64,000 nt of DNA, from contig MFOC01000002.1 of NCBI GenBank assembly GCA_001782235.1, positions 42,912 through 106,911 of the forward strand. The letters run 5' to 3'. A program made the translations under genes and the position numbers. Each line of letters opens with the position of its first letter. Positions within the stretch are counted from its first letter, which is position 1. The notes under the pieces were generated by a model that had not been told where the DNA came from, made no database searches, and saw only the letters and a program-made list of their open reading frames with translations. This DNA comes from Candidatus Levybacteria bacterium RIFCSPHIGHO2_02_FULL_40_18. GTDB lineage: Bacteria > Patescibacteriota > Microgenomatia > Levybacterales > GWA1-39-11. Of the stretch, positions 7,677 to 61,863 are shown piece by piece.

Positions 7677-7680
7677 CTTT

Positions 7681-15769: not shown

Positions 15770-15811
15770 GAGAATAGTATTATATTAAATACATCGAATA
15801 CATGCCACTAG

Positions 15812-15938
15812 CTAGAAATTGGTTATTAGAAATTAGAAAATGGTTCGGAAATTAGAAATTGGAAATTGGAATTTAATTACCATTTTCTATTTTCAATTCT
15901 CCATTACTATTTTCTATTATCTATTAACTATTTTCTAG
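15812..15938. repeat. palindromic AT-rich intergenic element (family A/B) built of GGAAATT heptamer repeats and their inverse, termini CTAGAAATTGG...AACTATTTTCTAG
   Basis: Four direct GGAAATT-like 7-mers followed by their inverted copies (CCATTTTC). Bounded by CTAG at both ends. Second copy at 41290..41417. Confidence 0.6.
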
Positions 15939-15939
15939 A

Positions 15940-17939: not shown

Positions 17940-17967
17940 AGGTTAATTTGTTGTTTTTGTCAATTTG

Positions 17968-26825: not shown

Positions 26826-26935
26826 GTATAACGTTTGTCGGTAACGAAGCCCGTATCGGTTAAGTTCTACGTTAAACGTGACCAAACTACGAAACGGGCA
26901 TCGTAACCGTAACCGATAACCGAACTTGTTACGTT
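26826..26935. repeat. imperfect palindromic intergenic element with CGTAAC/GTTACG-type short repeats
   Basis: CGTATAACG, CGGTAACG, CGTAACCGTAACCGATAACCG units and their approximate inverses between the PglC-like and ManC-like genes. Confidence 0.4.
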
Positions 26936-31101: not shown

Positions 31102-31989
31102 TTACCAACCAGAGATACGCTTCTTTAACGCAATTCCAGTTAGCACCAACATCCTAATTATACTTGGGTATTTATCTTTGTAGTGTTTATCATAAAAGAT
31201 TCTCATAGCGGCAAATCTTGCTTCATGGGCTCTTTTTCTTATTTCGCGGGTTGCGGTTGAATAGCTTTTTGAATCTTTTTTAAGTCCGCCGGATACCCCT
31301 TTATAATGAAGGATTTCAAATTCTGGAACAAAATAAATTTTCCAACCCCGCTCTTTTAACCTGTAACAAAAATCAATATCCTCACCGTACCAAAAGAAAT
31401 CCTCATCCCACCATCTCACCTGTTCCCCTGCTTCTCTCCTGACCAACATAAATGCGCCAGCTAAAGCGTCAACCTCATGAGTTTTGTTTAAGTCTAAATG
31501 TCCCAAACTGTATCCTGCAAATATTTTTGATTTTTTAAACAATTTCGAAAGACTTGAAAAATGCGACAATGCTCTCCATGGTGTTGGAAATCCTCTATGG
31601 GAAGCGTCGTCAAGTCTGCCACTTGGCAGGCGAACAAAACATGTTGCAGCGCCCGCATCTTTATTATGATCCATAAACTCAACCACCCCGTCAATTGTAT
31701 TTTCATAAACAACCGTATCCGTGTTCAAAAACAGAACAAACCGGCCTCTTGCTTCTTTAACGCCAATATTATTTGCTCGTGAAAAACCTACATTTTCCTT
31801 ATTTTGAATAAGTTTTAAGTTTGCGAGCTTAAGTTTTAAGATTTCACTGACTGAATCGTCCTCTGAATTATTATCAACCACGATTATTTCATAAGAATTC
31901 TTTTTAACTGTCCGAACAATCGATCGAATACATTCAATTGTCAAATCCCGGGTATTAAAGGAGACAATAATGATAGATAGGTCAACCAT
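31102..31989 (-). CDS. family 2 glycosyltransferase (GT2)
   Basis: N-terminus LSIIIVSFNTRDLT...VVDNNSED, and DxD region. Confidence 0.8.
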   Translation of the reverse strand: MVDLSIIIVSFNTRDLTIECIRSIVRTVKKNSYEIIVVDNNSEDDSVSEILKLKLANLKLIQNKENVGFSRANNIGVKEARGRFVLFLNTDTVVYENTIDGVVEFMDHNKDAGAATCFVRLPSGRLDDASHRGFPTPWRALSHFSSLSKLFKKSKIFAGYSLGHLDLNKTHEVDALAGAFMLVRREAGEQVRWWDEDFFWYGEDIDFCYRLKERGWKIYFVPEFEILHYKGVSGGLKKDSKSYSTATREIRKRAHEARFAAMRIFYDKHYKDKYPSIIRMLVLTGIALKKRISGW

Positions 31990-32059: not shown

Positions 32060-33229
32060 TTATAGGTTATTCCAAACTGTGTTTAGGTTATTGCCGATTA
32101 CCTTCCAAGAATACTCACGCTCAACCAGTTTCCGAGCGTTTCTTGCTAGTCTTCTTCTTAAGTTTAAATCATCTAACATCTTTTCAAGCCTCTCTTTAAA
32201 TTCCGATTCTTCGATTACGACCACCAAGTGCTCTCCGTCTTTTACGTCAAGCCCTTCAAGTCTTTGGGAAAGAGAAATAACAGGAACACCGGCAGCCATA
32301 GCCTCAAGAATCTTAAAGTTTGTACCCCCACCGAGTCTGATAGGAGCAACCATTACATCCGCTTTTTCATACTCATCTTGAATCTTAGGAACAAACTCAT
32401 TAATTATAACCCTGTTGTCATCCGCGAACTTCAAATCTCTTGCTTTCTTCCCAATAATTGTTAAAGTTATATCATTGCCTAAATTCTTAAAGACGGAGTC
32501 ATAGAAATAATTAATTGCGTCTATATTTGGAAAATAAGTAAAATTTCCTACAAATAGAAGTTTCGTTCCTCTTCTTTTTTTAGGAAGATTGAATTTATAA
32601 TCATCAATATCAACGCCGTTTCGTATTATTTCGCATTCGCCAACATACTTTCTTACTTCACGAGCATCGGTATCAGAAACCGTAATGCAAAGATCGGCCT
32701 TTTTAAACAGCGCTGTTTCTTCGCTGCGAATTTTGTCAACCTGGAATTCATATAGAGGTCTTATAAGGATATTCGTTTTTTGTGCGTATTCGCCATACAT
32801 CTTGTATTCAATATTCTCAGTTCCGAATACCTGCTTTGCTCCAAGATTTCTAATCTTATCCGATATATAAAAGGCTGTATAAAAAGATTCAAAGTGAACA
32901 ATGTCGATTTTCTTATCAGCGATAATCCGCAGTAAATCCGTGAGAATCGAGGATGTGAGGTAAAGAGTTTTAAAAATTGAATCACCGGAGAATAAACCCA
33001 ATATATTTCTTATATCCCTTACCTTTCTGCGGCTGGTTATTCCCGCGACTTCAACGCCTATCTTTTCCATTTCTACAACCGAATCCCTCCATGCATTATC
33101 TCTTACAAAAGAGAATAAATATTTCTTAATATCGACTCCAGAATATTTAAGCATATGATAGGCACGATTCTTTCCCCCGGTATTCGTGGGATAAGGAAAA
33201 TCATAAGTGACAAATAAGACTTTTTTCAT
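32060..33229 (-). CDS. family 4 glycosyltransferase (GT4)
   Basis: N-terminal MKKVLFVTYDFPYPTNTGG and C-terminal GGGTNFKILEAMAAGVPVIS. Confidence 0.8.
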   Translation of the reverse strand: MKKVLFVTYDFPYPTNTGGKNRAYHMLKYSGVDIKKYLFSFVRDNAWRDSVVEMEKIGVEVAGITSRRKVRDIRNILGLFSGDSIFKTLYLTSSILTDLLRIIADKKIDIVHFESFYTAFYISDKIRNLGAKQVFGTENIEYKMYGEYAQKTNILIRPLYEFQVDKIRSEETALFKKADLCITVSDTDAREVRKYVGECEIIRNGVDIDDYKFNLPKKRRGTKLLFVGNFTYFPNIDAINYFYDSVFKNLGNDITLTIIGKKARDLKFADDNRVIINEFVPKIQDEYEKADVMVAPIRLGGGTNFKILEAMAAGVPVISLSQRLEGLDVKDGEHLVVVIEESEFKERLEKMLDDLNLRRRLARNARKLVEREYSWKVIGNNLNTVWNNL

Positions 33230-34701
33230 TTTAGTTTTAATATCAAATACTCTTTGCTTGACGAAACGTGTTCATACATTGTCCCGAATCCGCTAAAATC
33301 ACTTGGGGTGGGATTTGCAATTACCAAATGCGTTGCGCCCCGCTCGATCAATTTTTCAATTGGTTCTTGAAATGTGGGCCAGCCGCGCCTTGCGCTCATA
33401 TTAAGCAGGGTTGTGCTTCCGTCATAAGGCGCAATTACGATTGCATCTTTTGGCAAAATCTCATCGGCTCTCTTTCCGGCCGCAACCATTCCCCGATCAT
33501 TAATATTGAAGTAATCCCGAACCAGCATCCACGAAAAATAAAAGGATGTCAAAATTAAAACCCCGAGAACGGCAGATGCAGTAACGTGATTGCTCTTCTC
33601 GGAGGTGAATTCGAATAATTTACTTGCTCCAAGACCGGCAAAGATACTAATTGTAGGAATTATGGCAATTTGATAATAGTCGTGTCTTACGTTACCCGTT
33701 GCTATAACCGAAACATAAAGCGCCGATGCAACAGCAAATGAAAGAAAAAATCCCGCATTCTTATCTAACTGCCACCCATTCGACTCACTCCGTTTACTCA
33801 AGGCAAACAAGCCACCTGCCACGAACAAAATTCCTACATACCCCAGTATCAATTTCGTTATTCTTTCAAAACCAAGCCACCTAAAAAATGCCGGTCGGAA
33901 ACGAATTCCGTCACCATTGAAAAGCCAACTTGACGCTGGAATTCCTTCCGGGAAATGTCCTATCCACCACCGCCAAAGAGTAAAAGGCACTAAAGATAAA
34001 ATTGCGAACACCCAGAGTTGCCATTTTTTTATAAAATCGACCCCGAACGCCTTCCACGCTAAATACGCCATTGGCAGTGTAAAGAAAAGAGCATAAGGCT
34101 TGAGCAAAAGCGCCAGTGCTGTAAAAAGAATTGATAAACCGAATGGCACCAAATACTTTATACTTAATACTTTATACTTAATACTTTTTTCGAGCCAGCG
34201 ATCGAAAAAATAAATTCCTCCAAGAATCGATGCTGCCATAGATGGATCAGGGAGAATTGTCCGTCCAAAAAATATCGAAAATGGCAGAAAAAGATAAAAA
34301 AGGCCGGCAAAAAATCCGGCAAGTTCACTTGCATATCTCTTCACTAAAAGATAGACAAAACATGCTCCTGCAAGACTTGCGAAAATAGAAATCAATCTGC
34401 CCCATTGTTCGAGCGCTAATATTCCGAATACGCCGAATAAACCTGCCTGGACTGCGTTATAAATCGGGAACTCTACAAATCGGTACCCACTTGGATTGTC
34501 AGTGCCAGATTGAATATTTGAGATATCAAAATACCGGGGGTATAAAAGGTTTATACTATCGCGAGCAAAAATTGTCGATACTGCATTTGTGTCGCTCTGC
34601 CTGAAAGCATGCCAATCCGCCACCGGATTATCAAACCTATAAAGCCTAACAATAAATCCAAGCACAAAAATCCCCACCAAAACCCAAGAAATCCTTCTCA
34701 T
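33226..34701 (-). CDS. GT-C fold polytopic membrane glycosyltransferase (ArnT/PMT-like, family 39/83-like)
   Basis: ~12 TM helices. First extracytoplasmic loop has the conserved acidic/aromatic region RFDNPVADWHAFRQSDT typical of lipid-phosphate-sugar dependent GT-C enzymes. Confidence 0.55.
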   Translation of the reverse strand: MRRISWVLVGIFVLGFIVRLYRFDNPVADWHAFRQSDTNAVSTIFARDSINLLYPRYFDISNIQSGTDNPSGYRFVEFPIYNAVQAGLFGVFGILALEQWGRLISIFASLAGACFVYLLVKRYASELAGFFAGLFYLFLPFSIFFGRTILPDPSMAASILGGIYFFDRWLEKSIKYKVLSIKYLVPFGLSILFTALALLLKPYALFFTLPMAYLAWKAFGVDFIKKWQLWVFAILSLVPFTLWRWWIGHFPEGIPASSWLFNGDGIRFRPAFFRWLGFERITKLILGYVGILFVAGGLFALSKRSESNGWQLDKNAGFFLSFAVASALYVSVIATGNVRHDYYQIAIIPTISIFAGLGASKLFEFTSEKSNHVTASAVLGVLILTSFYFSWMLVRDYFNINDRGMVAAGKRADEILPKDAIVIAPYDGSTTLLNMSARRGWPTFQEPIEKLIERGATHLVIANPTPSDFSGFGTMYEHVSSSKEYLILKLK

Positions 34702-34760
34702 AAGCTTAATTCTAGTTTATTTTATAGCATCAATCAAACTTTTTGTTATAATCTCGAGAA

Positions 34761-35705
34761 ATGGAAAGAGAGCCTATTCTTCCGCCAGAAAAAATAAATC
34801 TTTCTGAATTTGTGGAAAACCCGCATGCTACAATCAGGCAAGCGAATCGTCTGCATCTTGAAATCGCAAGAACAGCAATTGCAAGTAGAGGAATAGAAGG
34901 TGCCATGCAATACGGACCAATGTTTTTATCATTCTGGGTTTATAGAATCCGAGGTAGAGATAGAGCTCGCGCTCTTAAATCCTCTTATTTTTGGCTAAGA
35001 CACGCTGATGATATTGCTGATGGAGATAAGCCGTTGCCCCGCGGTTATTCCTCAAAAGAAGACTTTCTCTTAGAAAAAAAGGGGCTCGCTCGAAAGATTT
35101 TGACAGGCAGCGCCACTGACATTTTTGGAGATAAAGAGGACGTCCTTCTTTTGGATTTTGCATTTGCGACAAGAAGATTAAACATTGATTTAAGTGAGGA
35201 AACATTAGCGATTTTAGACACCATAATCTTCGACGAAGAAAGAAGTCGGACTGGAAGACTTCCTAAACAAGCGGAACTAGATGATTACTTCGATAAACTA
35301 GACTTCGCCTGCGTAGAAGGAGGTCTAAAACTCGCTGGAGAAAATTATAACAAAGAGGAAGTTGCTGATATAACCATGGCTGTTCGAACAATGTTTAATC
35401 TACGAGATATTACAAAAGACATGAGGGCAGGAATAATTAATATATCCTCTGAAGATATAGAGAGTTACGGAATTGATTTGGACAGATGTAAAAATGCTCC
35501 TACGCTCTCAGACCTTTTGAATTATGATCCGATCAGGAGATGGTACACAGATCAGATGCTTGCTTGCTCTGATTATTTGGAAAGGTCGGAAAAGAGCCTC
35601 GCCGGTATTAGAATGAAGCCCGAAACGCGCTTCGCTCTATCTTTCAATTCAAAAAGGGTTGTGAGAAATAAACTACGAAAGCTTAACAAATTACTAGCTC
35701 AATAA
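34761..35705 (+). CDS. squalene/phytoene synthase (SQS_PSY) family isoprenoid synthase
   Basis: FWLRHADDIADGD matches the first Asp-rich region (YAFCRxVDDIVD). MFNLRDITKDMRAGIINISSEDIESYGI matches the SQS_PSY signature-2 pattern NI.RDI.ED...GR.YLP.E.L..FGV. Confidence 0.55.
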   Translation: MEREPILPPEKINLSEFVENPHATIRQANRLHLEIARTAIASRGIEGAMQYGPMFLSFWVYRIRGRDRARALKSSYFWLRHADDIADGDKPLPRGYSSKEDFLLEKKGLARKILTGSATDIFGDKEDVLLLDFAFATRRLNIDLSEETLAILDTIIFDEERSRTGRLPKQAELDDYFDKLDFACVEGGLKLAGENYNKEEVADITMAVRTMFNLRDITKDMRAGIINISSEDIESYGIDLDRCKNAPTLSDLLNYDPIRRWYTDQMLACSDYLERSEKSLAGIRMKPETRFALSFNSKRVVRNKLRKLNKLLAQ

Positions 35706-36530
35706 AATGATTAGTGGTACACTAGTGGTACACCCGTCGGGTGAATTAGCTTGGCACCTCACGGCATTTACTCTAAAATTAGATTTTTTATCTTTGCAAG
35801 ATTTCTCTGGTAACCAACCCCATCATTAATAAATTCGCTATATTTCTTCGATCCACCAAATATATTCAAAAGGAATTCAGTTTTTACGAAACTCGCACTT
35901 TTATCTTGGAAGTAAAACTGATAAGACGTATAGGGGTAATTTTTAAGATCGCCAACTTCAATAATATGTGCCGTTACAGGATTTAGATGAATATAACGCG
36001 ATATATGCATAAAATCCTCAGTATCCTCTATCCGCCTACTCTTAAAGGGATTTTGAAACAAACTCCCGTTTCGATCATGTTTTGTATTAAAATATTTGGC
36101 AAAACTATTTTGGACATTAGATGCGAAGATTTTTATTCCATCATCTCGTAATTGCTCCACCAATAAATGGTAATGGTTAGGCATAAAAGCAAATGCATAA
36201 ATTTCGACTAATGGAAAATGATCTTTCACACCAGACAGATATGAATCTCTTAGCTTTATGGTCATTTGTTTAAACTTGGAATATCTCATTGACTGTTGAT
36301 ATCGATAGAAATCAACCGAGTTAACAATCTGAGTCAAATGCCTTAATGAAGAGAATATTGTTTCATTTCCTACGGACTTATTGAAGATATGATAAATTTC
36401 CCCAGTAGCCAATACATCTCTTTTTGCCGACATATCTCAGACTACTATAGAATCCGTAGGGTGTCAATACAATACCACCCGTCGGGTGTATTCGTTTGGA
36501 CCCGTCGCTCAGTCCGCCCCAATTAATCCG
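35706..36530. mobile_element. IS200/IS605-family (RAYT-type) element: Y1 HuH transposase flanked by subterminal hairpins
   Basis: Transposase ORF flanked on both sides by the motif ACCCGTCGGGTG (35733..35752 and 36476..36495, same orientation). Right flank also has the direct repeat TAGTGGTACAC x2. Confidence 0.7.
35768..36433 (-). CDS. REP-associated tyrosine transposase (RAYT) / IS200-like TnpA
   Basis: YHIFNKSVGNETIF (YH..RG motif), HuH motif MPNHYHLLV, and catalytic-Tyr region RYIHLNPVTAHII...NYPYTSY. Confidence 0.8.
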   Translation of the reverse strand: MSAKRDVLATGEIYHIFNKSVGNETIFSSLRHLTQIVNSVDFYRYQQSMRYSKFKQMTIKLRDSYLSGVKDHFPLVEIYAFAFMPNHYHLLVEQLRDDGIKIFASNVQNSFAKYFNTKHDRNGSLFQNPFKSRRIEDTEDFMHISRYIHLNPVTAHIIEVGDLKNYPYTSYQFYFQDKSASFVKTEFLLNIFGGSKKYSEFINDGVGYQRNLAKIKNLILE

Positions 36531-36560
36531 CCTCATTAGCTTTATTGTATCAAAAAAACG

Positions 36561-39500
36561 TTATTGTGGAATGATGGGGTGGCCGTCTTTGAAACGGATT
36601 ACTTCTTCTATGCTTCCATCGTCTTTAAATTCGAATACATGATCTTGAACTGAGGTTCCTGCAAGACTCAAAGCCTCAGGAAGATTTGAATGAACATATA
36701 CTTTTAAGTTGTCATTTTGGAAGGCAAACCAAAGCGCATCAGAAAGGCCCACGGGAAATATCCACGCCTCCCCTGTTTTGATCGAAACATTTACAAACCT
36801 AAATCTTAGATCATTTTTTGACCATGAATCGGAATAGAGCTCATCGATTGAAACAAAGAACTTCTGTACCTTCTGTCCTGCAGTCTGCCAATCACCGTGA
36901 ATTTGCTGAACCTGGATGATATGGAAGAGTGAAAAAATGGCAATCAAAACACCAACGCTCATAATAGCTATGTCTCGTCCATAGGAAGTTAGATATTCGA
37001 ATATCTTTCTGATTACCAAACCCAGTATCAAAATCAGCCCTAGTGTTGGAAGATAGCTGTATCTTGAGGTAATATTCCCAAGCCCCAAAAAAGGAAGGAG
37101 AGCTATCACAAAGAATAACATACCAAATACGGTCACCTTTCTTTCATCTGCGGATAGATATTTAGGAATTATTTTGTATGCAAAGTAAGAAGCACCCAAG
37201 ATCAAGGGAACTAAGACTGCCGCAAGCAAAAGATTATCCCGAAGCCCCGTTCGCAGTGCCGAATACACCGGGAACGAGGAAGGACCTAGAGCCGTTAATA
37301 GAAGATATCCGATTATATTACCGAGAACATTGAACGGTAACTTTATAATACTGTAACTGTAATCTCCGCTAAACCAGTGGCTTCCTGAAGCAAGTCTTAC
37401 CAAAAGATAAACTAAAATCGGAGAGAATAAAAATATGTGGCCCGACTTTTTAATGATCTTTCCTATTGATCCAAATCCTTCCTGAGCGACTTTATAGGCA
37501 ATTATTAGAAGCGGAGTCACAATTCCTACTTCGTGGAAAAGGAAGCCCAGGGATATGAAAACAATAGTTGCAATATAATATAGTGGATTCCTTTTCTCAT
37601 CCCAAACAGAAAACGCCAGAAGTGCGAGAAGCGCAAAAGCCGCGTTGAACAGATATCCGATTGAGGAGATCCAAAAAACGGCTTCTTGATACCCGCTCAT
37701 AAAAAGGAACAATAGTGCCGAAAGACCTGCAAGAATATTGTTCTTGAGGATCTTTCTTGCCAATAAATAGAATAAGACCGAAACTAAGAAATGCAAGATA
37801 AGCGAAGTTATATGGTATACAACCTGATTAAGCCAAAATATAGGATACATTGCCGAAAAGAATATTTTTGTACCGGGCCGGAAGAAAAATCCCTGAGAGT
37901 CAAGAAAATATTTGTAAATTCTCTCGAAAATTGATTTACAGGATGAATAATCACAGTCGGCCGCCCACCTAAACCAGGTAAAGTCGTCTCCTGTGAAATA
38001 GTTGCTAATCATTGGCGAGAATATTACAATTGTTGCAAGCAGCAAATAAAATATAAACGCATATGTTGAAATTGCCGCTTCCTTAAGTTCTTTATACAAA
38101 TCCACAGGTTTTTTTTGATATAAAGCGAGTGTTCCAAGAACTATGCCAGTCAAAAGCCACAGGGAAAAGGCGATTTTTGATGCCTCAAATACATCAATTA
38201 GAGTTGCATTAAACGCAAGACCAATAACTCCCGCAACATATCCTAAAACAAAACTTCTAACAACTCTATTTCTTACCTCTGGTAAGACTTTCTTTATGTA
38301 AATGCCTATTGTTAAGAATATGCCAAAAAAGGAGGCAAGCCCTAAAAGGCCTGTTTCGCCCAATATCCTAAGATAGTTATTATCAACGGCAAGACTGACT
38401 GATCCATATCCGCTTCCTAAAAATACATTCTTGGCAAATATGGCAAGAGTGCGGGGCCACTCCCCCTGAAACCGTGTGGTAAAGGAAAGGTCGTAGGCCG
38501 AGGCCCTTTTGACAATAAAATTACCATGAAGAATTACAACTTCTGCAGACAGAGATGCTTCCTCATCCGGATCAAGTTCGTAGAAAAAATTTCCCAATCT
38601 TTTAACAACCGGTGATAATGAAAGATTTATGTAGCCCGTTCCTTGCGGTAAATTCTCTCCTGTTGAAACATTGCTTGCAGTTACAACCGGGACTTCTGAG
38701 GGAAACTTTAAGGGTTTAGTAAATACTGGATCGGTTGGCCTCTTGAAAGTAGATGAACGAGTAGATTCAACTTCAAGAATCTCGTCAATCTTTCCACCTT
38801 TCATTGCGTGCTGAACTTCACCCAAGTCTTTGACAAAACTTTGACCTATTCTTTTATCTTTAAAATATGAAAATGGGACAAATTTTACGTTTCCAATGGC
38901 ATTCCCTGTTTGAGCATCCACCAAAACGTCCGTTTCGCGGATAGTGCTACCAAACCTTGTAAAAATTGATGGTTGAAATATAACAGAGAGGACGGCGAGA
39001 GCAAAAACAGCGGGCAAAAAAACAAAAATCAACTTCCTCTTTACAAATAAAAGAACAAAGAAAAGAGCTATAAAAAGAACGACAAAAGATATTCTTGAAA
39101 CTGTCCAGAAAAGAACAATGCCGCCTATAACTATAGCTGCCGCAAGCCCTATTTTTACAAGCCAGTTTTTAAATCCAAAAAATAAACCAGCGAGTATTGA
39201 AATAGCAAGAACAAGATATGCTGCAAAATCATAATGCCCGGCAAATGTTGATGGCACGCGGGAAAGAGAAGATAGCTGAATCGGAATTCCTTTGGCAAAT
39301 TCCTCATTCATTGTAAGATACGCCGGTAATCCGAAAAACTTCTGTCCTATACCATATAGAGATACTGCGACTAAAGTTACCGCTAAGACGGTAATTGCAT
39401 ATTTTAAGAAACTCTTATCCCGCATGGCAGAATAGGCAACAAAAAATAAACTCATATACTCTATATGTCTGACATAAGCAAGATATGAAACATTAGGGAA

Positions 39501-39800
39501 TACGTTGGCAAGAGTTGGGAAAAGCAGCACTACTCCGTGAATTGTCGCAATTGCACCGATCGTCCAATATATTAATATGGGAACCGTTAATGGGGTTTTA
39601 ATAGTTATTTTCTTTCTAAACAAAAAAACTAACCATAAAAGTAACGCAAGTAGCACAACGAAATCCTCTGCTCTTACATAAACCCAAGTATTCCGGACAT
39701 CAAGAATTGGTATTTTGGGGAATAATGGAATAAATGCCAAAAGAAATAAGGTGAAAACAAATAAAATATTGTCGGAAATCCACGAGAAAATTTTTTTCAT
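36561..39800 (-). CDS. 1079-aa polytopic membrane protein: O-antigen ligase/polymerase-like (Wzy_C-like) N-terminal domain fused to a GT-C-like domain
   Basis: More than 20 predicted TM helices. N-terminal half resembles O-antigen ligase family proteins. C-terminal half has the GT-C-like segment DDFTWFRWAADCDYS...FFFRPGTKIFFSAMYPIFW. Confidence 0.5.
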   Translation of the reverse strand: MKKIFSWISDNILFVFTLFLLAFIPLFPKIPILDVRNTWVYVRAEDFVVLLALLLWLVFLFRKKITIKTPLTVPILIYWTIGAIATIHGVVLLFPTLANVFPNVSYLAYVRHIEYMSLFFVAYSAMRDKSFLKYAITVLAVTLVAVSLYGIGQKFFGLPAYLTMNEEFAKGIPIQLSSLSRVPSTFAGHYDFAAYLVLAISILAGLFFGFKNWLVKIGLAAAIVIGGIVLFWTVSRISFVVLFIALFFVLLFVKRKLIFVFLPAVFALAVLSVIFQPSIFTRFGSTIRETDVLVDAQTGNAIGNVKFVPFSYFKDKRIGQSFVKDLGEVQHAMKGGKIDEILEVESTRSSTFKRPTDPVFTKPLKFPSEVPVVTASNVSTGENLPQGTGYINLSLSPVVKRLGNFFYELDPDEEASLSAEVVILHGNFIVKRASAYDLSFTTRFQGEWPRTLAIFAKNVFLGSGYGSVSLAVDNNYLRILGETGLLGLASFFGIFLTIGIYIKKVLPEVRNRVVRSFVLGYVAGVIGLAFNATLIDVFEASKIAFSLWLLTGIVLGTLALYQKKPVDLYKELKEAAISTYAFIFYLLLATIVIFSPMISNYFTGDDFTWFRWAADCDYSSCKSIFERIYKYFLDSQGFFFRPGTKIFFSAMYPIFWLNQVVYHITSLILHFLVSVLFYLLARKILKNNILAGLSALLFLFMSGYQEAVFWISSIGYLFNAAFALLALLAFSVWDEKRNPLYYIATIVFISLGFLFHEVGIVTPLLIIAYKVAQEGFGSIGKIIKKSGHIFLFSPILVYLLVRLASGSHWFSGDYSYSIIKLPFNVLGNIIGYLLLTALGPSSFPVYSALRTGLRDNLLLAAVLVPLILGASYFAYKIIPKYLSADERKVTVFGMLFFVIALLPFLGLGNITSRYSYLPTLGLILILGLVIRKIFEYLTSYGRDIAIMSVGVLIAIFSLFHIIQVQQIHGDWQTAGQKVQKFFVSIDELYSDSWSKNDLRFRFVNVSIKTGEAWIFPVGLSDALWFAFQNDNLKVYVHSNLPEALSLAGTSVQDHVFEFKDDGSIEEVIRFKDGHPIIPQ

Positions 39801-39868: not shown

Positions 39869-40738
39869 CTATACTTTGAGCATCCTCTTGTATGTATCGG
39901 TTAAGTATTTATTATTTATGATTTTACCTAAAACTACAAGAGCAAAAGATTTAGAAAAAAGTAAAAACTTCACAAAACTATACGAAAAAGGATTGCCGTG
40001 TTTTTTTTGAAAATAGATTAATCCCTTATGAATGTTCCTGATTGCAAACCCGCGACTTGAACTGGCATAACCTTCGTGAATTACTTCGATTGAGGGATCG
40101 AATACAACCTCAAGTCCTTCTTTTTTAACTCTGTAACAAAACTCCATGTCCTCAATATACATGAATAAGTTCTCATCGAATCCGTTAAATCTTGCAAATA
40201 GGTCGCGACGAACAGCCATAAAACCACCGCTCACAAAATCTACCTGCTGATTTCTTCCTGGCGAGAATCTTATTCCGAACGTCTCATCTAAACCTAATGC
40301 TGTAAGAAAAACTTCCGATGTTTTTAAAAATTTACCTGCCGATTTCTCACTTTTTAGGTTTCTATTTAAAATCTTTCCCCCCGCCACCCCAACATTGACA
40401 TCTTCTTCGAATATAGAAACTAAATTATCTAGCGAACCCTTATTCCACTCACAGTCGGGATTTATAAACAGAAGGTACTCTCCTCGCGCTTCTTTTGCTC
40501 CGATATTAATCCCTTTCGCGAATCCAAAATTCTCCTTGTTCTCTATAATTTTGACTTTTGACTTCAAATTTTGACTTTTGACTTTTGAATTTTGAATTAT
40601 CTCTAATGTTCCATCGGTCGAATTATTATCCACAACAATAACTTCAAAAGCTTTGTCTTTATTAAATTTAAAGATACTCTCAAGAAGCCTTTCGATGTAT
40701 TTCGCTGAATTATACGTGACGATAATTATCGAAACCAT
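39869..40738 (-). CDS. family 2 glycosyltransferase (GT2)
   Basis: N-terminus MVSIIIVTYNSAKYIERLLESI...VVDNNSTDGT. Carries the in-CDS 7-mer repeat. Confidence 0.8.
   Translation of the reverse strand: MVSIIIVTYNSAKYIERLLESIFKFNKDKAFEVIVVDNNSTDGTLEIIQNSKVKSQNLKSKVKIIENKENFGFAKGINIGAKEARGEYLLFINPDCEWNKGSLDNLVSIFEEDVNVGVAGGKILNRNLKSEKSAGKFLKTSEVFLTALGLDETFGIRFSPGRNQQVDFVSGGFMAVRRDLFARFNGFDENLFMYIEDMEFCYRVKKEGLEVVFDPSIEVIHEGYASSSRGFAIRNIHKGLIYFQKKHGNPFSYSFVKFLLFSKSFALVVLGKIINNKYLTDTYKRMLKV
40551..40606. repeat. in-CDS tandem 7-nt repeats (TTGACTT / TTGAATT, ~8 units)
   Basis: Read directly. Translated as NSKVKSQNLKSKVKIIEN inside the GT2 between the DNNS region and the ENFGFAKGIN motif. Confidence 0.7.
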
Positions 40739-41280
40739 GCTGCCCTTCCCAGACGATACGTGGGGTTTTTGAGTTTTCGCTCGCCAATTACTTTTGCCGG
40801 AACGCCGCCCACAATTTCAAACTCCCCAACATCGCGTGTAACTACTGCTCCTGCCCCAACCACAGCTCCTTTACCGATTTTTACTCCCGGCAAAATTATG
40901 GCGCGGGGCCCTATAAAAACGTAGTCGCCGATTTCAACAGGAGATGTTACGGCTTTAAAATTTTCGTCATTTATATCATGTTCTGCATTGTAGATCATTA
41001 CTTCACTCGCAATATCTACGTGATCACCAATTATTAATTTGTCTCGACCGTCCAAAACCGCGTTTTCTCCAATAATCGAATCTTGACCTATCGATATCTT
41101 ACATGCATCGTAAAAAACAGCACCCATGTGCAGGGTTGAGCCTTTGCCGATTTTCATGCCCTGAATCCTATAGAAAAACCGCCTTACGTGATGAAACGGA
41201 ATGTGACCAACGCATTTTAATACCATATTGTCACACTCTAATAGTATTGCCTTAAGTCTTCTTATGATTTTATTAAACAT
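40726..41280 (-). CDS. hexapeptide-repeat sugar O-acetyltransferase (WcaF/MAT-like)
   Basis: Left-handed beta-helix repeats IGENAVLDGRDKLIIGDHVDIASEVMI...IGPRAIILPGVKIGKGAVVGAGAVV. Confidence 0.8.
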   Translation of the reverse strand: MFNKIIRRLKAILLECDNMVLKCVGHIPFHHVRRFFYRIQGMKIGKGSTLHMGAVFYDACKISIGQDSIIGENAVLDGRDKLIIGDHVDIASEVMIYNAEHDINDENFKAVTSPVEIGDYVFIGPRAIILPGVKIGKGAVVGAGAVVTRDVGEFEIVGGVPAKVIGERKLKNPTYRLGRAAWFR

Positions 41281-41289: not shown

Positions 41290-41417
41290 TAGAAATTGGT
41301 TAATAGAAATTTGATATTGGTTATGGAAATTAGATATTGGAAATTTGTATATTTTTAACTATTATCTATTTTCCAGTTTCCATTACCATTTTCCATTTTC
41401 TCACAACTATTTTCTAG
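41290..41417. repeat. palindromic AT-rich intergenic element, second copy of family A/B (TAGAAATTGGTTAATAGAAATT...AACTATTTTCTAG)
   Basis: Termini nearly identical to the element at 15812..15938. Internal GGAAATT / CCATTTTC heptamer arms. The right-end CTAG contains the TAG stop codon of GT4 41414..42580. Confidence 0.6.
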
Positions 41418-42580
41418 CTTACTGGTTTTGCTGCTTCTTCCAAGGTGTGCAAAACCTGTCTTGCGCTCTTTTCCCAAGAAAACTTTTTAACCTGTTCGTG
41501 CCCTTTCTTAATCATGTCATCGCGAAGTTTTTTGTCTGACAAAACTTTTTCAATTTTCTCCGCGATGTCCGATACATCTTCCGGATTAAAGTAAATTGCG
41601 GCATCTCCTCCTGCCTCGGGAAGGGAAGAAACATTACTTGTTAAAACTGGACATCCGTATTTCATCGCCTCTAAAATTGGCAGACCGAATCCTTCATAAA
41701 GGCTTGGCAATACAAAAAGTTCTGCGCTTTCATAAAATGCCGGAAGCTCTTCATCGGTAACATTTTCTAAAAATCGAACCCGATCTTCAACTCCGTATCT
41801 TCTTGGCGCTTCGAGAATTTCCTCATACTGCCACCCCCGCCTCCCAACAATCACCAGTTTTAAATCTTCTCCCACCCCTGAGGTGAGGACGCTTTCACCT
41901 CGGGGGTGAATAACGGCCGAAAATGCTTCGACTAGTCGTACAATATTCTTACGAGGTTGAAGTGTCCCGACGAATAAAATAAATGTCTTTTCGATTGAAT
42001 ATTTTTCAAGAATTTCTTTTTTTGACATTTTAGATTTATTTGCCTCCTTAATACCAAGATAAGCTACGTGTACGCGAGCCGCAGGGACATGGTACTCCTT
42101 GATTATATCATCCTTTGAGCTCCGGCTAATGGTGATGATTTTGCGAGCGGAACGAACAGAATATCCTCCCCACAAGTTGAGTTGAAGCAGATCCTTCTTC
42201 TTAAAAAGCTTCGGGAAATGCTTATATGAAATGTCTAGAATTGAAATTACTTGAGGACAAGGGGCGAACAACGGACCATAGTGGGTTGGCGAGAAGAAAA
42301 CATCAAATTCTTGCTTGCGAATAGCAGGGCTTAAGGCAAAAATTGTCCAAAGAGGCTTATTTGGCAATATTTCGTAGCGCCATCCTTCCCGTTCGCGAGG
42401 CAAGTCGGATGTAGGTTCGACAGGCAAAAAAATGACATACTCGTTTTGTTTATCAATCTTGTTTAGTTCGATTAACCATTCAAAGGCAACCTCTGAACTT
42501 CCAACCCTGTTTGGTAATCCATTCAAATCATATCCAAATCTTGGAATAACTCCTTCGTATCCATTAATTCCTATCTTCAT
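41414..42580 (-). CDS. family 4 glycosyltransferase (GT4)
   Basis: N-terminal MKIGINGYEG and C-terminal LPSLYEGFGLPILEAMKYGCPVLTSN. Confidence 0.8.
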   Translation of the reverse strand: MKIGINGYEGVIPRFGYDLNGLPNRVGSSEVAFEWLIELNKIDKQNEYVIFLPVEPTSDLPREREGWRYEILPNKPLWTIFALSPAIRKQEFDVFFSPTHYGPLFAPCPQVISILDISYKHFPKLFKKKDLLQLNLWGGYSVRSARKIITISRSSKDDIIKEYHVPAARVHVAYLGIKEANKSKMSKKEILEKYSIEKTFILFVGTLQPRKNIVRLVEAFSAVIHPRGESVLTSGVGEDLKLVIVGRRGWQYEEILEAPRRYGVEDRVRFLENVTDEELPAFYESAELFVLPSLYEGFGLPILEAMKYGCPVLTSNVSSLPEAGGDAAIYFNPEDVSDIAEKIEKVLSDKKLRDDMIKKGHEQVKKFSWEKSARQVLHTLEEAAKPVS

Positions 42581-42609: not shown

Positions 42610-42978
42610 TTAAGTATAAGTCTGGGAAGCCTTTATTAAACCATTGAGTAGCTTGTGAACTAAAATTATTGAATTCTCAATTATCAAGAAGTTTTCATTA
42701 GATACATATTCAAGTTCTTTCGAGATAATCAGTTGATTATGTAACTCTGTTACGGATCCTAACGCAATATAGTAAAATTGATTTTTTTCCTTCTTGTTTC
42801 TTCTTGAAAATCCCTCAGCAATATTACTAGTTACTGAAATAGCGCATCTTCGCATTTGTGTAGTAAGAGCGAATAATTCTTCCCTTGGAAATTGTTTAGT
42901 AATCTTATAAATTAACAGGACAAGCTTTATACCTTCCTGCCAAGCTATAAGGTCTTTAAAAGTGACGATTTTTGTCAT
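42610..42978 (-). CDS. four-helix-bundle protein (23S rRNA intervening-sequence-type, TIGR02436-like)
   Basis: 122 aa, all-helical, with a conserved-looking segment CAISVTSNIAEGFSRRNKKEKNQFYYIALGSVTEL typical of this family. Confidence 0.6.
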   Translation of the reverse strand: MTKIVTFKDLIAWQEGIKLVLLIYKITKQFPREELFALTTQMRRCAISVTSNIAEGFSRRNKKEKNQFYYIALGSVTELHNQLIISKELEYVSNENFLIIENSIILVHKLLNGLIKASQTYT

Positions 42979-43002: not shown

Positions 43003-43536
43003 TTATACTGTTGAGATTCCTGGATAGACAACACGTATCCTGCTCTCGTCTATCCCCAGAATCTCAAGTGCGTCTTTTTTGCTTGATTCAGAAATACAAA
43101 ACACGATATTGGACTCTTTTTTTACCCAAGAGAGTTTTCTTTTCTGAACTGAAACAATTTTTTGATCAGTCTCCTCCGGATGTTTATAAACAATAAGATC
43201 ATAAATTATAGTTACCTTTTTCGCTTTTCGCGCCGGCGGCTCTGTCCAATCGGAAGTAATAAACCAATCCACATCTCCCACAAACAGTTCTACCGGCAAA
43301 ATATGGAGCTTGTTCCATAATGTATCTAGAAGCGTCGGTGGGATTGGAAATTTGACAATTCGAACATTAATTGGAAATTGGAAATTGGAAATTGGAAATT
43401 GCCTTCGCAGGGAAGAAAAGAATAAAACAAATTCATGTTCGTCATTTTTAACCATTTCCCTTACCAAATTCGAAAGATAATTCGCTACTCCAGTATTGCC
43501 GTATGCAATCTGACTCACATCAATCCCGATCTTCAT
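43003..43536 (-). pseudogene. GT4 glycosyltransferase N-terminal fragment (177 aa, lacks the C-terminal GT-B domain)
   Basis: Starts MKIGIDVSQIAYGNTGVANY like the intact GT4s at 41414 and 29907, but terminates after the N-domain (VVYPGISTV*). The four-helix-bundle gene follows instead. Contains the TGGAAAT x4 repeat. Confidence 0.55.
43372..43399. repeat. in-CDS tandem 7-nt repeat TGGAAAT x4 (same unit as intergenic element family A/B)
   Basis: Read directly. Translated as QFPISNFQFPINV. Flanking ATTGGAAATTTG also occurs in element B. Confidence 0.7.
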
Positions 43537-43572: not shown

Positions 43573-43791
43573 TTAGTGCTTGCGGTTTTGAATTAAATAA
43601 ATGATGATCGCCGCCAGAAAAAATGCGGCGGCATAATAGGTAAGCCTTTGAGCTGTGAAGAAAACCCATGCTGAAAAAAGCGGAATCGCTAAAACTAAAC
43701 ATAAAAGTCCGACCAATGTAAACCATTCAGGTTTTCTCCTAAATAAAAGTCCCAAAAGTATAATCAAGAATATTAAATCTTGTGGTTTCAT
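43573..43791 (-). CDS. hypothetical small membrane protein (72 aa, 3 TM)
   Basis: Overlaps the upstream gene by 4 nt. Almost entirely hydrophobic. Confidence 0.3.
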   Translation of the reverse strand: MKPQDLIFLIILLGLLFRRKPEWFTLVGLLCLVLAIPLFSAWVFFTAQRLTYYAAAFFLAAIIIYLIQNRKH

Positions 43792-45674
43792 TTTTTTAAT
43801 TTGCTTCGAGCAAGGGACATAATGATTAATGCAAGTGTTATACTGCTAATCACGAGGCCAATGTGAACCCACTTTTGCGGTCCGTAATAAATTTCCAAGA
43901 CATAATTCCCTGTTTTTGGTAAGACGAAACTGTTCATTTTATTAAACTCCGAACTTGATACGTTTAAATTCGAACTTTTCGCTATCCAGTTTTGATCGTA
44001 CCCTTCGGCAAAAACTATTCTCTCATTTATTTCCGCATTTTTGATGTTAAGCTTATATCTTGTTGGATTTATAAATTTGTAATCAATTTGCAAGTTATCG
44101 TTTGGGCTCCAAAAACGATCCTTAAAGTCAGGGGCTTCAAATACTACAATTTTGCCGAACGTTTCAACTTTTTTAAGCCAGGGGATTTCTTCCAGCCCAT
44201 TAACCGCATCTTTATATTTTTGGTCATCATATTTCCTATCAGAAAGAAATATTTCGCCTTCAGAGTCTTGCGGCACTATCACATACCGTACGGATAAATT
44301 AGAAAAAAGCTCTTGTGACTCCTCCATATTTAACTCTTGAATCATGGCAGAAGCACTTCCCGATTTTAGAAGTTCATACCTCCCAATGGCAGGATTAATA
44401 TCCGAGAAATATCCATAGCGCTGCCACTCCGGAATCCAAAGAGTTCTAAAAAATTCATTTTGTTCAACTATAAAATCTTTAAGTCGAACATAACTCTCGG
44501 GAACTTTTCTAATTTGAAAAATATCGGAGATAAATATCAATCTTAAGCTAAATATCCAAAAAATTAAAAAGGCTCCAATTAATATCTTGTGTGAAATTTT
44601 CCTTTTTAGAAATACCGAAAAATTAAATAGCGAATAAGGTATAAGGATGGAATAAGAAAGCGCAATCAAAGAATAAAATTTTGTCGGATCTCGAAAAAGA
44701 CTAAACCCGGGAATGTTCTCAAATAACCACTCGAACACCCGACCGAATGGCTCATTTGTACCTTTTGCTAAAAAGACACCTGCTAATCCCAGAAGGGCAA
44801 AAAATAATATAACTCGGCTTTGGAGAATCTCTTTCTTGTTTTTTAAGTCTATAAAAAATAGGCTTACGAAAGCCAGAATCGGAATTATTAGGAATTCAGG
44901 CCGCATAAAGTATGTCTTTCCGAAAATATTTTCCGGCCAGTTGGGATGAAGAAGGGAGATTGTGTTTTCAAAAAGAGCAAAACTGAAAAATTTTAATCCT
45001 GAAAGTGAATCAAAACCCTGCGGCAGAAATGCGGGTTTAAACAATATAAGGGGAATAATCCAGTAAGAATGAAGAAGAAAAACAATTAGTAAAGGGGTAA
45101 TAACTACATACAGTAGATGCTTTTTAAAGAATTCGGATTGAAGAAGAGAATAAAAGAAGAGCGAACCTAAAGTAAGAAGAAAAAATCGGGGATCGAATAA
45201 AAGCTGCAGGGACAAAGCTAAGCTAAAAATGATGGAGGATCTTAGGTTTGTATTTCGCAGGAGATTTATAAATGTTAGAAATACGAGAGGCATAAGAGCA
45301 TAGGCAAATGCGACGCCCTGCTGCCCGCCTAAAAAAATAGTCAAAAAATAAGTATTGGTTGTAAAAATTATTCCTGACAGTAGCGAATAAACAATGTTCT
45401 TGCTGATAATGTTTCTGAAGAGAAAAAAGGCTCCCAAAAAAGCGATGAGAAGTGCTGGTATTATCCAAAAGACAAGATTTATGATAAACCAAGGAATACC
45501 AAGATAGGAAAAAAAGGAAGTAAGATTTAAAAAGCTAGTTATCCAAATCGTATTTATGGAGGAAATCCCGATTCCTGTATTAAGACTCGAATCCCAAGCA
45601 TACGGAACATGTGCGAAAAACTTTATATTTTCTGGCCAAAAAAACCTAAAGTCTCCTAAGAGTAGATTTAACAT
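43788..45674 (-). CDS. polytopic membrane protein with C-terminal extracytoplasmic domain (YfhO/GT-C-like)
   Basis: ~12 TM helices in the first ~400 aa, then a soluble ~200-aa domain and a terminal TM anchor. In an operon with the GtrB-like synthase. Confidence 0.45.
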   Translation of the reverse strand: MLNLLLGDFRFFWPENIKFFAHVPYAWDSSLNTGIGISSINTIWITSFLNLTSFFSYLGIPWFIINLVFWIIPALLIAFLGAFFLFRNIISKNIVYSLLSGIIFTTNTYFLTIFLGGQQGVAFAYALMPLVFLTFINLLRNTNLRSSIIFSLALSLQLLFDPRFFLLTLGSLFFYSLLQSEFFKKHLLYVVITPLLIVFLLHSYWIIPLILFKPAFLPQGFDSLSGLKFFSFALFENTISLLHPNWPENIFGKTYFMRPEFLIIPILAFVSLFFIDLKNKKEILQSRVILFFALLGLAGVFLAKGTNEPFGRVFEWLFENIPGFSLFRDPTKFYSLIALSYSILIPYSLFNFSVFLKRKISHKILIGAFLIFWIFSLRLIFISDIFQIRKVPESYVRLKDFIVEQNEFFRTLWIPEWQRYGYFSDINPAIGRYELLKSGSASAMIQELNMEESQELFSNLSVRYVIVPQDSEGEIFLSDRKYDDQKYKDAVNGLEEIPWLKKVETFGKIVVFEAPDFKDRFWSPNDNLQIDYKFINPTRYKLNIKNAEINERIVFAEGYDQNWIAKSSNLNVSSSEFNKMNSFVLPKTGNYVLEIYYGPQKWVHIGLVISSITLALIIMSLARSKLKK

Positions 45675-48316: not shown

Positions 48317-49246
48317 TCACAAATAAAGCTTTTTAATGAGGTACTGTGGTCTTTTTCTAATTTCATCGTAAATCCTCCATAAATATTCTCCTATGACTCC
48401 AAGCATCATCATAATTAATCCTGAGGCAATTAGTAATACAATCATTATAGGTGCATATCCTTGAAATGGGATATCGTTAAACAATCGTGCAAAAAGAACT
48501 ACTAATGCATATATAAATCCTAAAAATGACGTCATAACGCCGATAAAAGACATTATCCTTATTGGCAAATAAGAGGTATTGATAAATCCGTCAATAAAAT
48601 ACTTAATTTTCTTTGTGAAATTCCATTGAGATTTTCCTATTACTCTTTTTAACCGTTTATACTTTATGAAATAGGGTTCGTATCCTAACCAAAGAAGATC
48701 TCCCTGAATGAAAGAATTTCGCTCATCAAAGCTCAATACCCTTTTATATACCTCATTATCTACTAAAAAATAATCAAAACCTCCCGCCGGCATTTTTGGA
48801 ACAGCTACCTTAATTAGGCTATAAAATATTTTAGATGTAATTTTAGAAATAAAATCATCTTCTCTATCTATTCTTGCACAAGCAACCACTTTGTAACCCT
48901 TATTCCATTTTTCAATCATTTTTGTAATAAGGTCAGGCGGATCTTGTAAATCGGCCGAGATATGTATAAGAAGATTCCCCTTCGCATGCTGAAAACCTGC
49001 AAGTATTGCGGACTGCTGCCCAAAATTCCTTACAAAATCTATTACTGTAACATTCCTGTCAACTTTCTTTATTTTCAGCAACTCATTCAAAGAATTATCA
49101 TCCGAGCCGTCGTTGATAAATATAATTTCATAAGCATATCTGCTTAATAATTCTCTTAATACGGAGATAAGACTTATGTAGGTCTTGTACAATGTCCCTT
49201 CATTTCTATAAACAGGAACAACTACCGAAATCAGCTTTTTTTTCAT
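48317..49246 (-). CDS. GtrB/ArnC/DPM1-like polyprenyl-phosphate sugar synthase (GT2 with C-terminal TM hairpin)
   Basis: VVVPVYRNEGTL...INDGSDDNS...RNFGQQSAILAGF...ADLQDPP catalytic core plus two C-terminal TM helices ending GVIGEYLWRIYDEIRKRPQYLI. Confidence 0.8.
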   Translation of the reverse strand: MKKKLISVVVPVYRNEGTLYKTYISLISVLRELLSRYAYEIIFINDGSDDNSLNELLKIKKVDRNVTVIDFVRNFGQQSAILAGFQHAKGNLLIHISADLQDPPDLITKMIEKWNKGYKVVACARIDREDDFISKITSKIFYSLIKVAVPKMPAGGFDYFLVDNEVYKRVLSFDERNSFIQGDLLWLGYEPYFIKYKRLKRVIGKSQWNFTKKIKYFIDGFINTSYLPIRIMSFIGVMTSFLGFIYALVVLFARLFNDIPFQGYAPIMIVLLIASGLIMMMLGVIGEYLWRIYDEIRKRPQYLIKKLYL

Positions 49247-61859: not shown

Positions 61860-61863
61860 ATTA

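Follow-up and report, generated by a model that had tools for sequence, protein, structure and literature searches.

A bimodular membrane glycosyltransferase, conserved across Microgenomates, that joins an O-antigen-ligase-like module to a divergent GT-C_A module

Does one long membrane protein from a candidate-phylum bacterium unite two glycosyltransferases (GTs), and what might the two do together? The question is raised by an open reading frame (ORF) of 1079 codons at positions 36561-39800, minus strand, of a stretch of 64,000 nucleotides from Candidatus Levybacteria bacterium RIFCSPHIGHO2_02_FULL_40_18 (contig MFOC01000002.1, positions 42,912 to 106,911); the whole stretch that was analysed is called the window in the following. 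A reading of the letters by a model, the original prediction, took the product for an unusual fusion of an O-antigen-ligase/polymerase-like half with an ArnT/PMT-like GT-C half, which might couple polymer ligation with decoration. We find that the protein consists of two unrelated modules, a Wzy_C/O-antigen-ligase-like N-module and a C-module with the GT-C_A fold, which are encoded as adjacent genes in some relatives. From sequence and structural models it appears probable that this one polypeptide carries two different extracytoplasmic GT modules, both dependent on lipid-linked sugars, which work together on consecutive steps.

The ORF runs from an ATG start through its stop codon, and both motifs quoted in the original prediction, DDFTWFRW (aa 605-612) and FFFRPGTKIFFSAMYPIFW (aa 638-656), are present in the translation. 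The protein database holds more than 120 full-length homologues of the fusion protein (1045-1094 aa, 54-98 % identity, 97-100 % coverage), and a scan of GTDB species-representative genomes located relatives in at least 582 stretches. Each of the best 80 of these stretches gave one full-length match, at 41-82 % identity, and they belong to Levy-, Roizman-, Gottesman- and Woesebacteria, that is, to the Microgenomates of the candidate phyla radiation; the closest relative among the matches listed is a metagenome-assembled genome of Roizmanbacteria with 82 % identity. Given these many full-length homologues and the recurrence in genomes, the ORF cannot be put down to an artefact of assembly or to a frameshift. 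The fusion is real, widely conserved and the standard form across Microgenomates, so that the view of it as a rarity did not hold. No description of a fusion between a Wzy_C/O-ligase-like and a GT-C_A module was found in the searchable literature. In public annotation (NCBI, JGI) the homologues are called 'O-antigen ligase (family protein)' or hypothetical, and the former name describes the N-half only.

Hydropathy, AlphaFold2 and family-wide loop charges place an N-terminal block of 12 transmembrane (TM) helices with a ~200-aa loop (aa 276-478) before a second TM block of 11-12 helices (aa 576-962) and a soluble tail (aa 963-1079), which amounts to ~23-24 TM helices in one chain. The full-length model reached a predicted local distance difference test (pLDDT) of 77 and a predicted template modelling score (pTM) of 0.76. 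According to the loop-charge topology, the linker between the modules is cytoplasmic and the loop with D605 and D606 lies outside. Polar residues are invariant in both halves of the family alignment (A1); two diverse sets (A2 and A3) were aligned as well.

The N-module belongs to the Wzy_C/GT-C_B superfamily and fails one defining feature of O-antigen ligases. The charges of its loops alternate in the way that 12 TM helices would predict. In the window protein the Wzy_C signal is confined to aa 221-290 and stays below the Pfam gathering threshold (PF04932, 31.7 bits) because the enlarged loop splits the match to the hidden Markov model (HMM), while stand-alone N-half orthologues, which have shorter loops, match the entire HMM and exceed this cut-off with 33.1 and 32.3 bits. 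The stand-alone orthologue at locus L082 is 38 % identical to the N-half (E 5e-111). Weak Wzy_C matches, every one sub-threshold, occur in 24 of 35 family members, and the NCBIfam model IctB also matches the N-module weakly. The full-length model matched, besides GT-C_A enzymes, the cryo-electron microscopy (cryo-EM) structure of WaaL (7tpg_B) with a Foldseek probability of 1.0 and a TM-score of 0.63 normalised to WaaL. This match was missing from the top 50 when the C-half alone was searched, and it is therefore attributed to the N-half. The large loop carries a beta-rich insertion that is predicted at low to medium confidence (AlphaFold2 model, DSSP).

For residue comparison, E. coli K-12 WaaL was taken from the annotated genome. 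The O-ligase motif reads H-[NSQ]-X9-G-XX-[GTY], and its His (H313 in CmWaaL) has been put forward as the acceptor-activating residue. E. coli WaaL shows H338-N-EIIEAGSLK-G-LM-G, and the window protein, in the same register, D473-N474-NYLRILGET-G484-LL-G487; the conserved O-ligase His is thus not present in the window protein, which has the Asp D473 at its position. D473, N474, G484 and G487 are invariant in A1, and the Asp is also kept in the split orthologues. Asp or Glu at this position characterizes the peptidoglycan polymerases of the SEDS type and, in clan GT-C1, most families of Wzy-type polymerases, with His as the O-ligase state (PMC10920833). Read from sequence, the Asp state and the lack of another Wzy-like gene in the operon favour a polymerase-like role, or that of a ligase for something other than lipopolysaccharide (LPS). 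Two conserved arginines of WaaL bind the diphosphate of undecaprenyl diphosphate (Und-PP), namely R191/R265 in CmWaaL and R215/R288 in E. coli (PMC10920833), and both appear to be present here as R236 and R443. Around R443, the local alignment sets R-FQGEWPRT-LAIFAKN of the window protein against R-LAMYEIG-LNIFIKS of E. coli WaaL. With the single E. coli WaaL sequence as a template without a profile, hhalign gave the family profile a probability of <3 %; the registers alone were used, and cautiously.

For the C-half, Pfam, NCBIfam and PDB sequence searches gave no match with the window protein or its closer relatives. A C-half-only AlphaFold2 model, built on a 61-sequence alignment, reached a pLDDT of 94.3 and a pTM of 0.93. 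Its top 21 PDB matches in Foldseek are all GT-C_A enzymes, with probabilities of 0.93-1.0, and comprise STT3/OST, DPY19, ArnT, PglB, AglB, Pmt4, AftA, PIG-M, ALG6 and Pmt1/2; STT3 ranks first (E 4.7e-4, probability 1.0), and ArnT (5f15) aligns with TM-scores of 0.52/0.50. With aa 566-1079 as query, an exhaustive HMMER search at E <= 1e-3 collected 6090 representative clusters. Distant stand-alone relatives, whose matches to the C-half have E-values of ~1e-16 to 1e-18, lie above the gathering threshold of Pfam PMT_2 (PF13231, 26.1 bits) with 34.1, 27.0 and 26.5 bits, and other distant relatives bear C-terminal TPRs. Within the family, 3 of 35 members match PMT_2 weakly, and the PMT_2 links are confined to the C-half. 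Furthermore, hhalign related the C-half family (A2) to a multiple alignment of the neighbouring PMT_2-like family with a probability of 95.0 % (E 3.7e-8; the 195 aligned columns lie in the N-terminal GT-C core), as against 0.6 % for the N-half family and that same neighbour and 2.5 % for the N-half and C-half families with each other. The single E. coli ArnT, again a template without a profile, gave 2.7 %. BLASTP of the C-half against the neighbouring PMT_2-like ORF returned nothing, and the kinship emerged at the profile-profile level only. Domain mapping with HMMs, structure prediction and a search for the halves as separate genes, which the original prediction had named as checks, all bear out its division into a Wzy_C-like N-half and a C-half of divergent PMT_2/ArnT type.

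In GT-C_A enzymes such as ArnT, PMT, PglB and Emb, the first outside loop bears acidic residues that serve catalysis or bind metal. D605 and D606 lie ~10 residues past TM1 in a loop predicted outside; A1 shows no exception to either of them, and in A2 and A3 their conservation is 90 % or higher. The invariant residues of the C-half in A1 are D605, D606, R641, K645, H663, H670, E706, E757, R802, D813 and R913. Down to 20-36 % identity, D605, D606, R641-P642, H663, H670, E706, E757, Y798, R913 and Y916 are kept, R641 being invariant even in stand-alone relatives of that range. The window protein contains neither WWD nor WW, as a WWDYG-type motif would require; hence the C-module is not an oligosaccharyltransferase of the STT3/PglB type, even though STT3 is the top structural match. 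PMT_2/ArnT-type families use polyprenyl-phosphate monosaccharides as donors (PMC10920833, Table 1). On the strength of profiles and models, the C-module is best described as a new branch of PMT_2/ArnT-type GT-C_A enzymes that Pfam does not cover. Its C-terminal tail possibly takes part in acceptor binding.

Both fused and separate halves occur among the relatives. Among the 150 best representatives at 50 % identity, we counted 33 clear fusions, 14 truncated fusions and ~29 complete stand-alone proteins of C-half type with N-termini of their own. P0121 (located at a contig end), P0126, P0130, P0142 and P0158 were rejected as stand-alone C-halves, as they begin within the last N-half TM helices and are truncated fusions. 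At locus L083, the C-half gene (516 aa, 2982-4532) comes directly after a Wzy_C gene (528 aa, 1406-2992), and the two overlap by 11 nt in the ATGA manner; the ~30-aa tail upstream of the junction and the 19-aa polar N-terminus downstream are jointly longer than the fused linker, so the split is real. L086 has an N-half homologue of 531 aa (5406-7001; 35 % identity, E 8e-97) that retains the Asp motif and borders on a C-half gene of 470 aa (7001-8413). We regard L083 and L086 as reliable split cases. L082 also has adjacent N-like and C-like genes, and probably is a third such locus, yet this split is uncertain because a 1-nt indel in the A6 run at its junction would be enough to give a fused gene again. 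The split genes of all these loci share the same operon with identical synteny. In a neighbour-joining tree of the C-half columns, drawn without support values, stand-alone PMT_2-type proteins branch deepest, followed by the P0175 clade with separate adjacent genes and last by a large, mostly fused clade with a few nested stand-alone proteins. This suggests that adjacency came first, then fusion and then occasional fission or loss.

A tblastn comparison of the window neighbours with 80 related loci revealed a near-invariant same-strand operon, in the order GT4, WcaF-like acetyltransferase, GT2, fusion, PMT_2-like GT-C, GT4, (GT2), GT4 and, further on, a WbaP-type priming phosphoglycosyl transferase. 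The PMT_2-like gene is immediately downstream of the fusion in 68/68 loci with enough flank, the GT2 gene is immediately upstream in 67/71, and Bac_transf follows ~7 kb downstream in most loci. In the window, a segment of ~1.86 kb (34702-36560), with a Y1_Tnp-like ORF and a 314-aa plus-strand ORF, parts the fusion from the PMT_2-like gene; of 68 related loci, only 2 have a Y1_Tnp homologue at a distance of up to 9 kb. The flanks had thus been described correctly, with a Y1_Tnp/IS200-like ORF on one side and a GT2 gene on the other, but the IS200-like neighbour belongs to a lineage-specific insertion, and the native downstream neighbour is the PMT_2-like GT-C gene.

The part of the window from 24 to 64 kb is a single glycan-biosynthesis island. 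It contains RmlABCD (59456-63762), a DegT aminotransferase, two methyltransferases, two acetyltransferases, many GT2 and GT4 enzymes and the WbaP-type primer, and at least four further GT-C-like polytopic proteins. One GT2 of the island gives full-length matches to PgfS (E 3.4e-63) and ArnC (E 1.4e-48), below the equivalog cut-offs, and is a candidate polyprenyl-phosphate-sugar synthase that might supply the GT-C_A modules of the island.

The analysis shows two distinct modules with their folds and family affinities, conserved candidate catalytic residues in both, fused as well as split genes and a conserved operon; which donors and acceptor the modules use, in what order they react and that both are active we infer as follows. 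The WbaP-type primer and the GT4/GT2 enzymes of the operon would build an Und-PP-linked oligosaccharide. The N-module would bind this Und-PP-oligosaccharide via R236 and R443 and transfer it, with D473 activating the acceptor. In a polymerase mode this acceptor would be the next repeat unit, in a ligase mode one of the envelope. The C-module would use a polyprenyl-phosphate monosaccharide, for which the island has the PgfS/ArnC-like candidate synthase, and its DD605-606 loop, adding a single sugar onto the same glycan or its acceptor. The order could run either way, as priming before ligation or as decoration after polymerisation. Ligation could in this manner be coupled with decoration, as the original prediction had proposed. 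Adjacent and translationally coupled genes of a conserved Microgenomates envelope-glycan operon would have been fused via a short cytoplasmic linker, and such a fusion indicates that the modules work as a physical unit on consecutive steps. Because some relatives encode the halves as separate neighbouring genes, the two very probably act together on one cell-surface sugar polymer. A bolder version, which we consider somewhat unlikely, is a two-site 'assembly line' of ~23-24 TM helices. The glycan would pass directly between a Wzy/WaaL-like site (Und-PP-oligosaccharide) and a PMT/ArnT-like site (polyprenyl-phosphate sugar) to yield a lineage-wide and possibly essential envelope glycopolymer of Microgenomates; the C-module would then found a new GT-C_A family at the level of CAZy, and in the O-ligase/polymerase clan a new branch of Asp type would begin with the N-module.

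Several findings weigh against two modules working on consecutive steps. The window protein scores 19.6 bits as a whole and 23.2 bits with its N-half alone against Wzy_C, both under the cut-off, and has no PMT_2 match even at E <= 10; as it fails both Pfam thresholds, its family assignment rests on transitive homology and predicted structure. PDB sequence searches with the protein, with its full-length profile and with the C-half profile gave no relevant match, and matches to a nitrite reductase, TrpRS and a designed coiled coil were rejected as chance. The Foldseek E-values are modest (~5e-4 to 1e-1), with TM-scores of ~0.45-0.63, and the cues conflict as to which side of the membrane the C-terminal domain and the conserved G908-R913-Y916 loop lie on, with 11 versus 12 TM helices. 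Pfam and NCBIfam scans recognised no flippase of the Wzx, MurJ, MATE or GtrA type and no LCP-type ligase in the island, so that the pathway is incomplete as annotated. Moreover, at the loci L088 (1-9617), L089 and L087 (7001-8482) the GT2 gene is directly followed by a C-half homologue that stands alone, and this by the PMT_2-like gene, an N-half gene being absent between them; hence the C-module can exist and work without an adjacent N-module.

Closest to the two-step reading is a machine for protein O-glycosylation, the special case of it in which the acceptor is a protein. The N-module would act as an O-oligosaccharyltransferase (O-OTase) of the PglL/PilO/WsaB type, the C-module PMT-like, and S-layer, pilin or other surface proteins would be glycosylated. 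Wzy_C-family enzymes do include such O-OTases, the C-half is kin to PMT_2, the family of protein O-mannosyltransferases, with Pmt4 and Pmt1/2 among its structural matches, and the polyprenyl-phosphate-sugar synthase of the island is most similar to PgfS, from a streptococcal protein-glycosylation system. Still, no gene for an acceptor protein was identified in the operon, which resembles a classical repeat-unit polysaccharide locus (WbaP-type primer, many GT4/GT2, acetyltransferase), and ArnT, AftA and STT3 are structural matches just as good; we consider a protein acceptor unlikely. That the protein is literally an LPS O-antigen ligase is very improbable. The label 'O-antigen ligase family protein' should not be taken literally, as the N-module fails one O-ligase hallmark, with Asp in place of the acceptor-activating His, and as Patescibacteria and Microgenomates are known to be monoderm and to lack LPS. 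Although the NCBI/JGI names say otherwise and WaaL is the best structural match of the N-half, LPS is on general grounds not expected in this host lineage, and the window contains peptidoglycan genes and no lipid A or core genes.

One could also imagine that a single module is catalytic and the other a degenerate pseudo-enzyme, serving as membrane scaffold, lipid-carrier binding site or regulator. The N-half without its canonical ligase His and with a poorly predicted loop, in a protein below both Pfam thresholds, would fit such a picture. This is quite improbable, as each half has, at the positions where an active site is expected, many charged or polar residues that stay invariant among sequences only 20-60 % identical, as both also occur as conserved independent full-length genes, and as Asp at the His position is normal in SEDS and GT-C1 polymerases (PMC10920833). 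Next to negligible, finally, is the idea of a single known family, such as the one long YfhO-type protein that the original prediction had itself set against its proposal, or of an artefactual read-through of two genes. Nothing more than the general similarity of all polytopic GT-C proteins speaks for it. There is no match to YfhO at E <= 10 or to any other single family, the N and C profiles are unrelated and the halves have separate structural matches; the fused ORF recurs in the genomes described above, and real split versions exist.

How does the proposed two-module enzyme compare with known systems? With WaaL (Wzy_C PF04932; CAZy GT121, clan GT-C1, GT-C_B; 7TPG) the N-module shares 12 TM helices, a large outside loop near its C-terminus, two arginines at the R215/R288-equivalent positions, the register X-N-X9-G-XX-G and the structural match to 7tpg. 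It differs in having Asp D473 for His, a loop insertion of ~150 aa that is beta-rich, whereas the periplasmic region of WaaL is mostly helical, an attached second GT module and a host lineage that lacks LPS. The C-module shares with ArnT (GT83) and PMT/PMT_2 (GT39) the GT-C_A fold, the acidic pair directly past TM1 and profile homology at the PMT_2 level. It has, however, a conserved set of its own (DD, R641-P, H663, H670, E706, H-E757, SHW..GDYSY and GNI.SRY.Y) and only a small C-terminal domain of ~90 aa; it has neither MIR nor TPR, and a Wzy_C module is fused to it. STT3/PglB/AglB (GT66) share the GT-C_A core and are the top Foldseek matches of the C-half, but the fusion lacks WWD(YG), has a C-terminal domain of ~90-115 aa instead of a large peptide-binding domain and shows its profile affinity to PMT_2.

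Among the bimodular ligases described so far, the nearest precedent is WadA of Brucella/Mesorhizobium, an O-antigen ligase composed of GT121 and GT25 (PMC10920833). There, too, an O-ligase-type module is fused to a second GT, which is thought to serve an adjacent step of the same glycan. The GT25 partner in WadA is soluble, nucleotide-sugar-dependent and of GT-A type, whereas that in the present fusion is a polytopic GT-C predicted to use a lipid-linked donor; the window protein has no Pfam match to GT25. For the C-module, three-component extracytoplasmic glycosylation by a polyprenyl-phosphate-sugar synthase, a flippase and a GT-C, as in the Gtr, CsbB/YfhO and GT136 systems (PMC11127046), would by analogy be the closest working paradigm. 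Its likely logic is the same, namely the addition of one sugar from a lipid-phosphate donor outside the membrane after assembly; a PgfS/ArnC-like synthase lies in the island, and the small C-terminal domain could bind glycan, like the carbohydrate-binding module of the GT136 enzyme. Unlike in those systems, no flippase partner was recognised in the island and the GT-C is covalently joined to a ligase/polymerase-like enzyme instead of being free-standing. Altogether, both modules come from known superfamilies and GT fusions are common, but this bimodular combination is new.

Wzy/WaaL-like and GT-C_A enzymes are hard to study, as their substrates are lipid-linked and their partners unknown. A natural fusion, together with its split-gene relatives, tells which GT-C_A enzyme pairs with which Wzy/WaaL-like enzyme, and it offers a single-chain target for cryo-EM in which a polymerase or ligase comes with a decorating or priming transferase. 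Attention is also drawn to a large family, with ~6,000 representative clusters at E <= 1e-3 for its C-half, a part that neither Pfam nor NCBIfam detects, and to a conserved operon for envelope glycans in Microgenomates; hardly anything of the cell surface of these organisms has been characterised, and LPS, on which an 'O-antigen ligase' could act, is lacking there. The features of the gene and its surroundings are collected in Table 1.

Table 1. Features of the fusion gene and of neighbouring genes, in window coordinates.
Feature	Position	Strand	Basis
Whole gene, bimodular integral-membrane glycosyltransferase, 1079 aa (stop codon 36561-36563)	36561..39800	minus	ORF list and translation, full-length homologues, AlphaFold2 model
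N-module, aa 1-565, Wzy_C/O-antigen-ligase-like (GT-C_B type), 12 TM helices, both termini cytoplasmic	38106..39800	minus	Pfam, stand-alone orthologues, Foldseek, loop charges
T233-V-S-R236, invariant Arg aligned to E. coli WaaL R215	39093..39104	minus	invariant columns, hhalign and local alignment
Large extracytoplasmic loop, aa 276-478, with beta-rich insertion ~aa 287-437; shorter in L082 split orthologue	38367..38975	minus	hydropathy, DSSP of AlphaFold2 model, L082 alignment gaps
R443, invariant Arg within one residue of E. coli WaaL R288 in the alignment	38472..38474	minus	invariant columns, local alignment LAIFAKNVF / LNIFIKSPF
D473-N474-X9-G484-XX-G487, O-ligase motif register with His replaced by invariant Asp	38340..38384	minus	E. 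coli WaaL motif read directly, invariant columns, split orthologues
K-rich linker between modules, aa 562-575, cytoplasmic; split point in relatives	38076..38117	minus	hydropathy, charges, L082/L083 junction sequences
C-module membrane domain, aa 576-962, GT-C_A fold, divergent PMT_2-related family, no Pfam coverage	36915..38075	minus	AlphaFold2 C-half model, Foldseek, hhalign, Pfam scores of distant relatives
D605-D606-FTWFRW acidic motif at start of first extracytoplasmic loop past TM1, putative catalytic/metal site	37965..37988	minus	sequence, conservation
FFFRPGTKIFFSAMYPIFW with R641-P-G-T-K645, conserved juxtamembrane helix of loop 1	37833..37889	minus	sequence, conservation
C-terminal tail, aa 963-1079, long helix extension and small alpha/beta domain, motif FVNVP..G.AWVFPVGL.DA.W	36564..36914	minus	DSSP of models, conservation
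GT2, upstream operon gene	39869-40738	minus	Pfam, NCBIfam
WcaF-like hexapeptide acetyltransferase, upstream	40726-41280	minus	Pfam, NCBIfam
GT4, upstream	41414-42580	minus	Pfam, NCBIfam
Y1_Tnp/IS200-like ORF	35768-36433	minus	
314-aa ORF, no Pfam or NCBIfam match	34761-35705	plus	
PMT_2-like GT-C, downstream	33226-34701	minus	Pfam, NCBIfam
GT4, downstream	32060-33229	minus	Pfam, NCBIfam
GT2, downstream	31102-31989	minus	Pfam, NCBIfam
GT4, downstream	29907-31043	minus	Pfam, NCBIfam
GT4, downstream	28116-29255	minus	Pfam, NCBIfam
Sugar-1-phosphate nucleotidyltransferase, downstream	26929-28011	minus	Pfam, NCBIfam
WbaP-type priming phosphoglycosyl transferase, downstream	26179-26817	minus	Pfam, NCBIfam
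PgfS/ArnC-like GT2, two C-terminal TM helices (aa 227-245, 267-285)	48317..49246	minus	NCBIfam
PTPS_related-like polytopic protein	45676-48285		
AftD-like polytopic protein, 1210 aa	51971-55603		
PMT_2-like polytopic protein, second	56204-58432		

Some further observations concern the surroundings of the operon. A 628-aa ORF at 43788-45674 is predicted by hydropathy to have ~7 TM helices and has no Pfam match; its match to the NCBIfam MmpA family trehalose lipid delivery protein is weak and local (33.8 bits, cut-off 210), and in many related loci homologues occur upstream of the fusion, at a distance of 4-9 kb. It may be a missing transport or flippase component. Between the GT4 gene at 41414-42580 and a 177-aa ORF with only the N-terminal part of a GT4 (43003-43536) lies a gene for a four-helix-bundle protein of the 23S_rRNA_IVP type (42610-42978), and such IVP genes occur at varying positions in related operons (L082 and several genome loci). 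Just below the island, from 9926 to 18888, the window encodes MraW, an FtsI-type penicillin-binding protein, a MurE-like protein, MurA, a GlmU-like protein and another Mur ligase; this peptidoglycan/division block fits a peptidoglycan-containing host.

As to the source of the related records, many of those with a Microgenomates-type operon are titled 'uncultured Gammaproteobacteria bacterium' and are third-party annotation (TPA) assemblies (L002, L004, L005, L007 and others), and one operon-bearing record (L062) is titled 'Candidatus Pacearchaeota archaeon'. The contigs under these titles look like mislabelled or mis-binned Patescibacteria.

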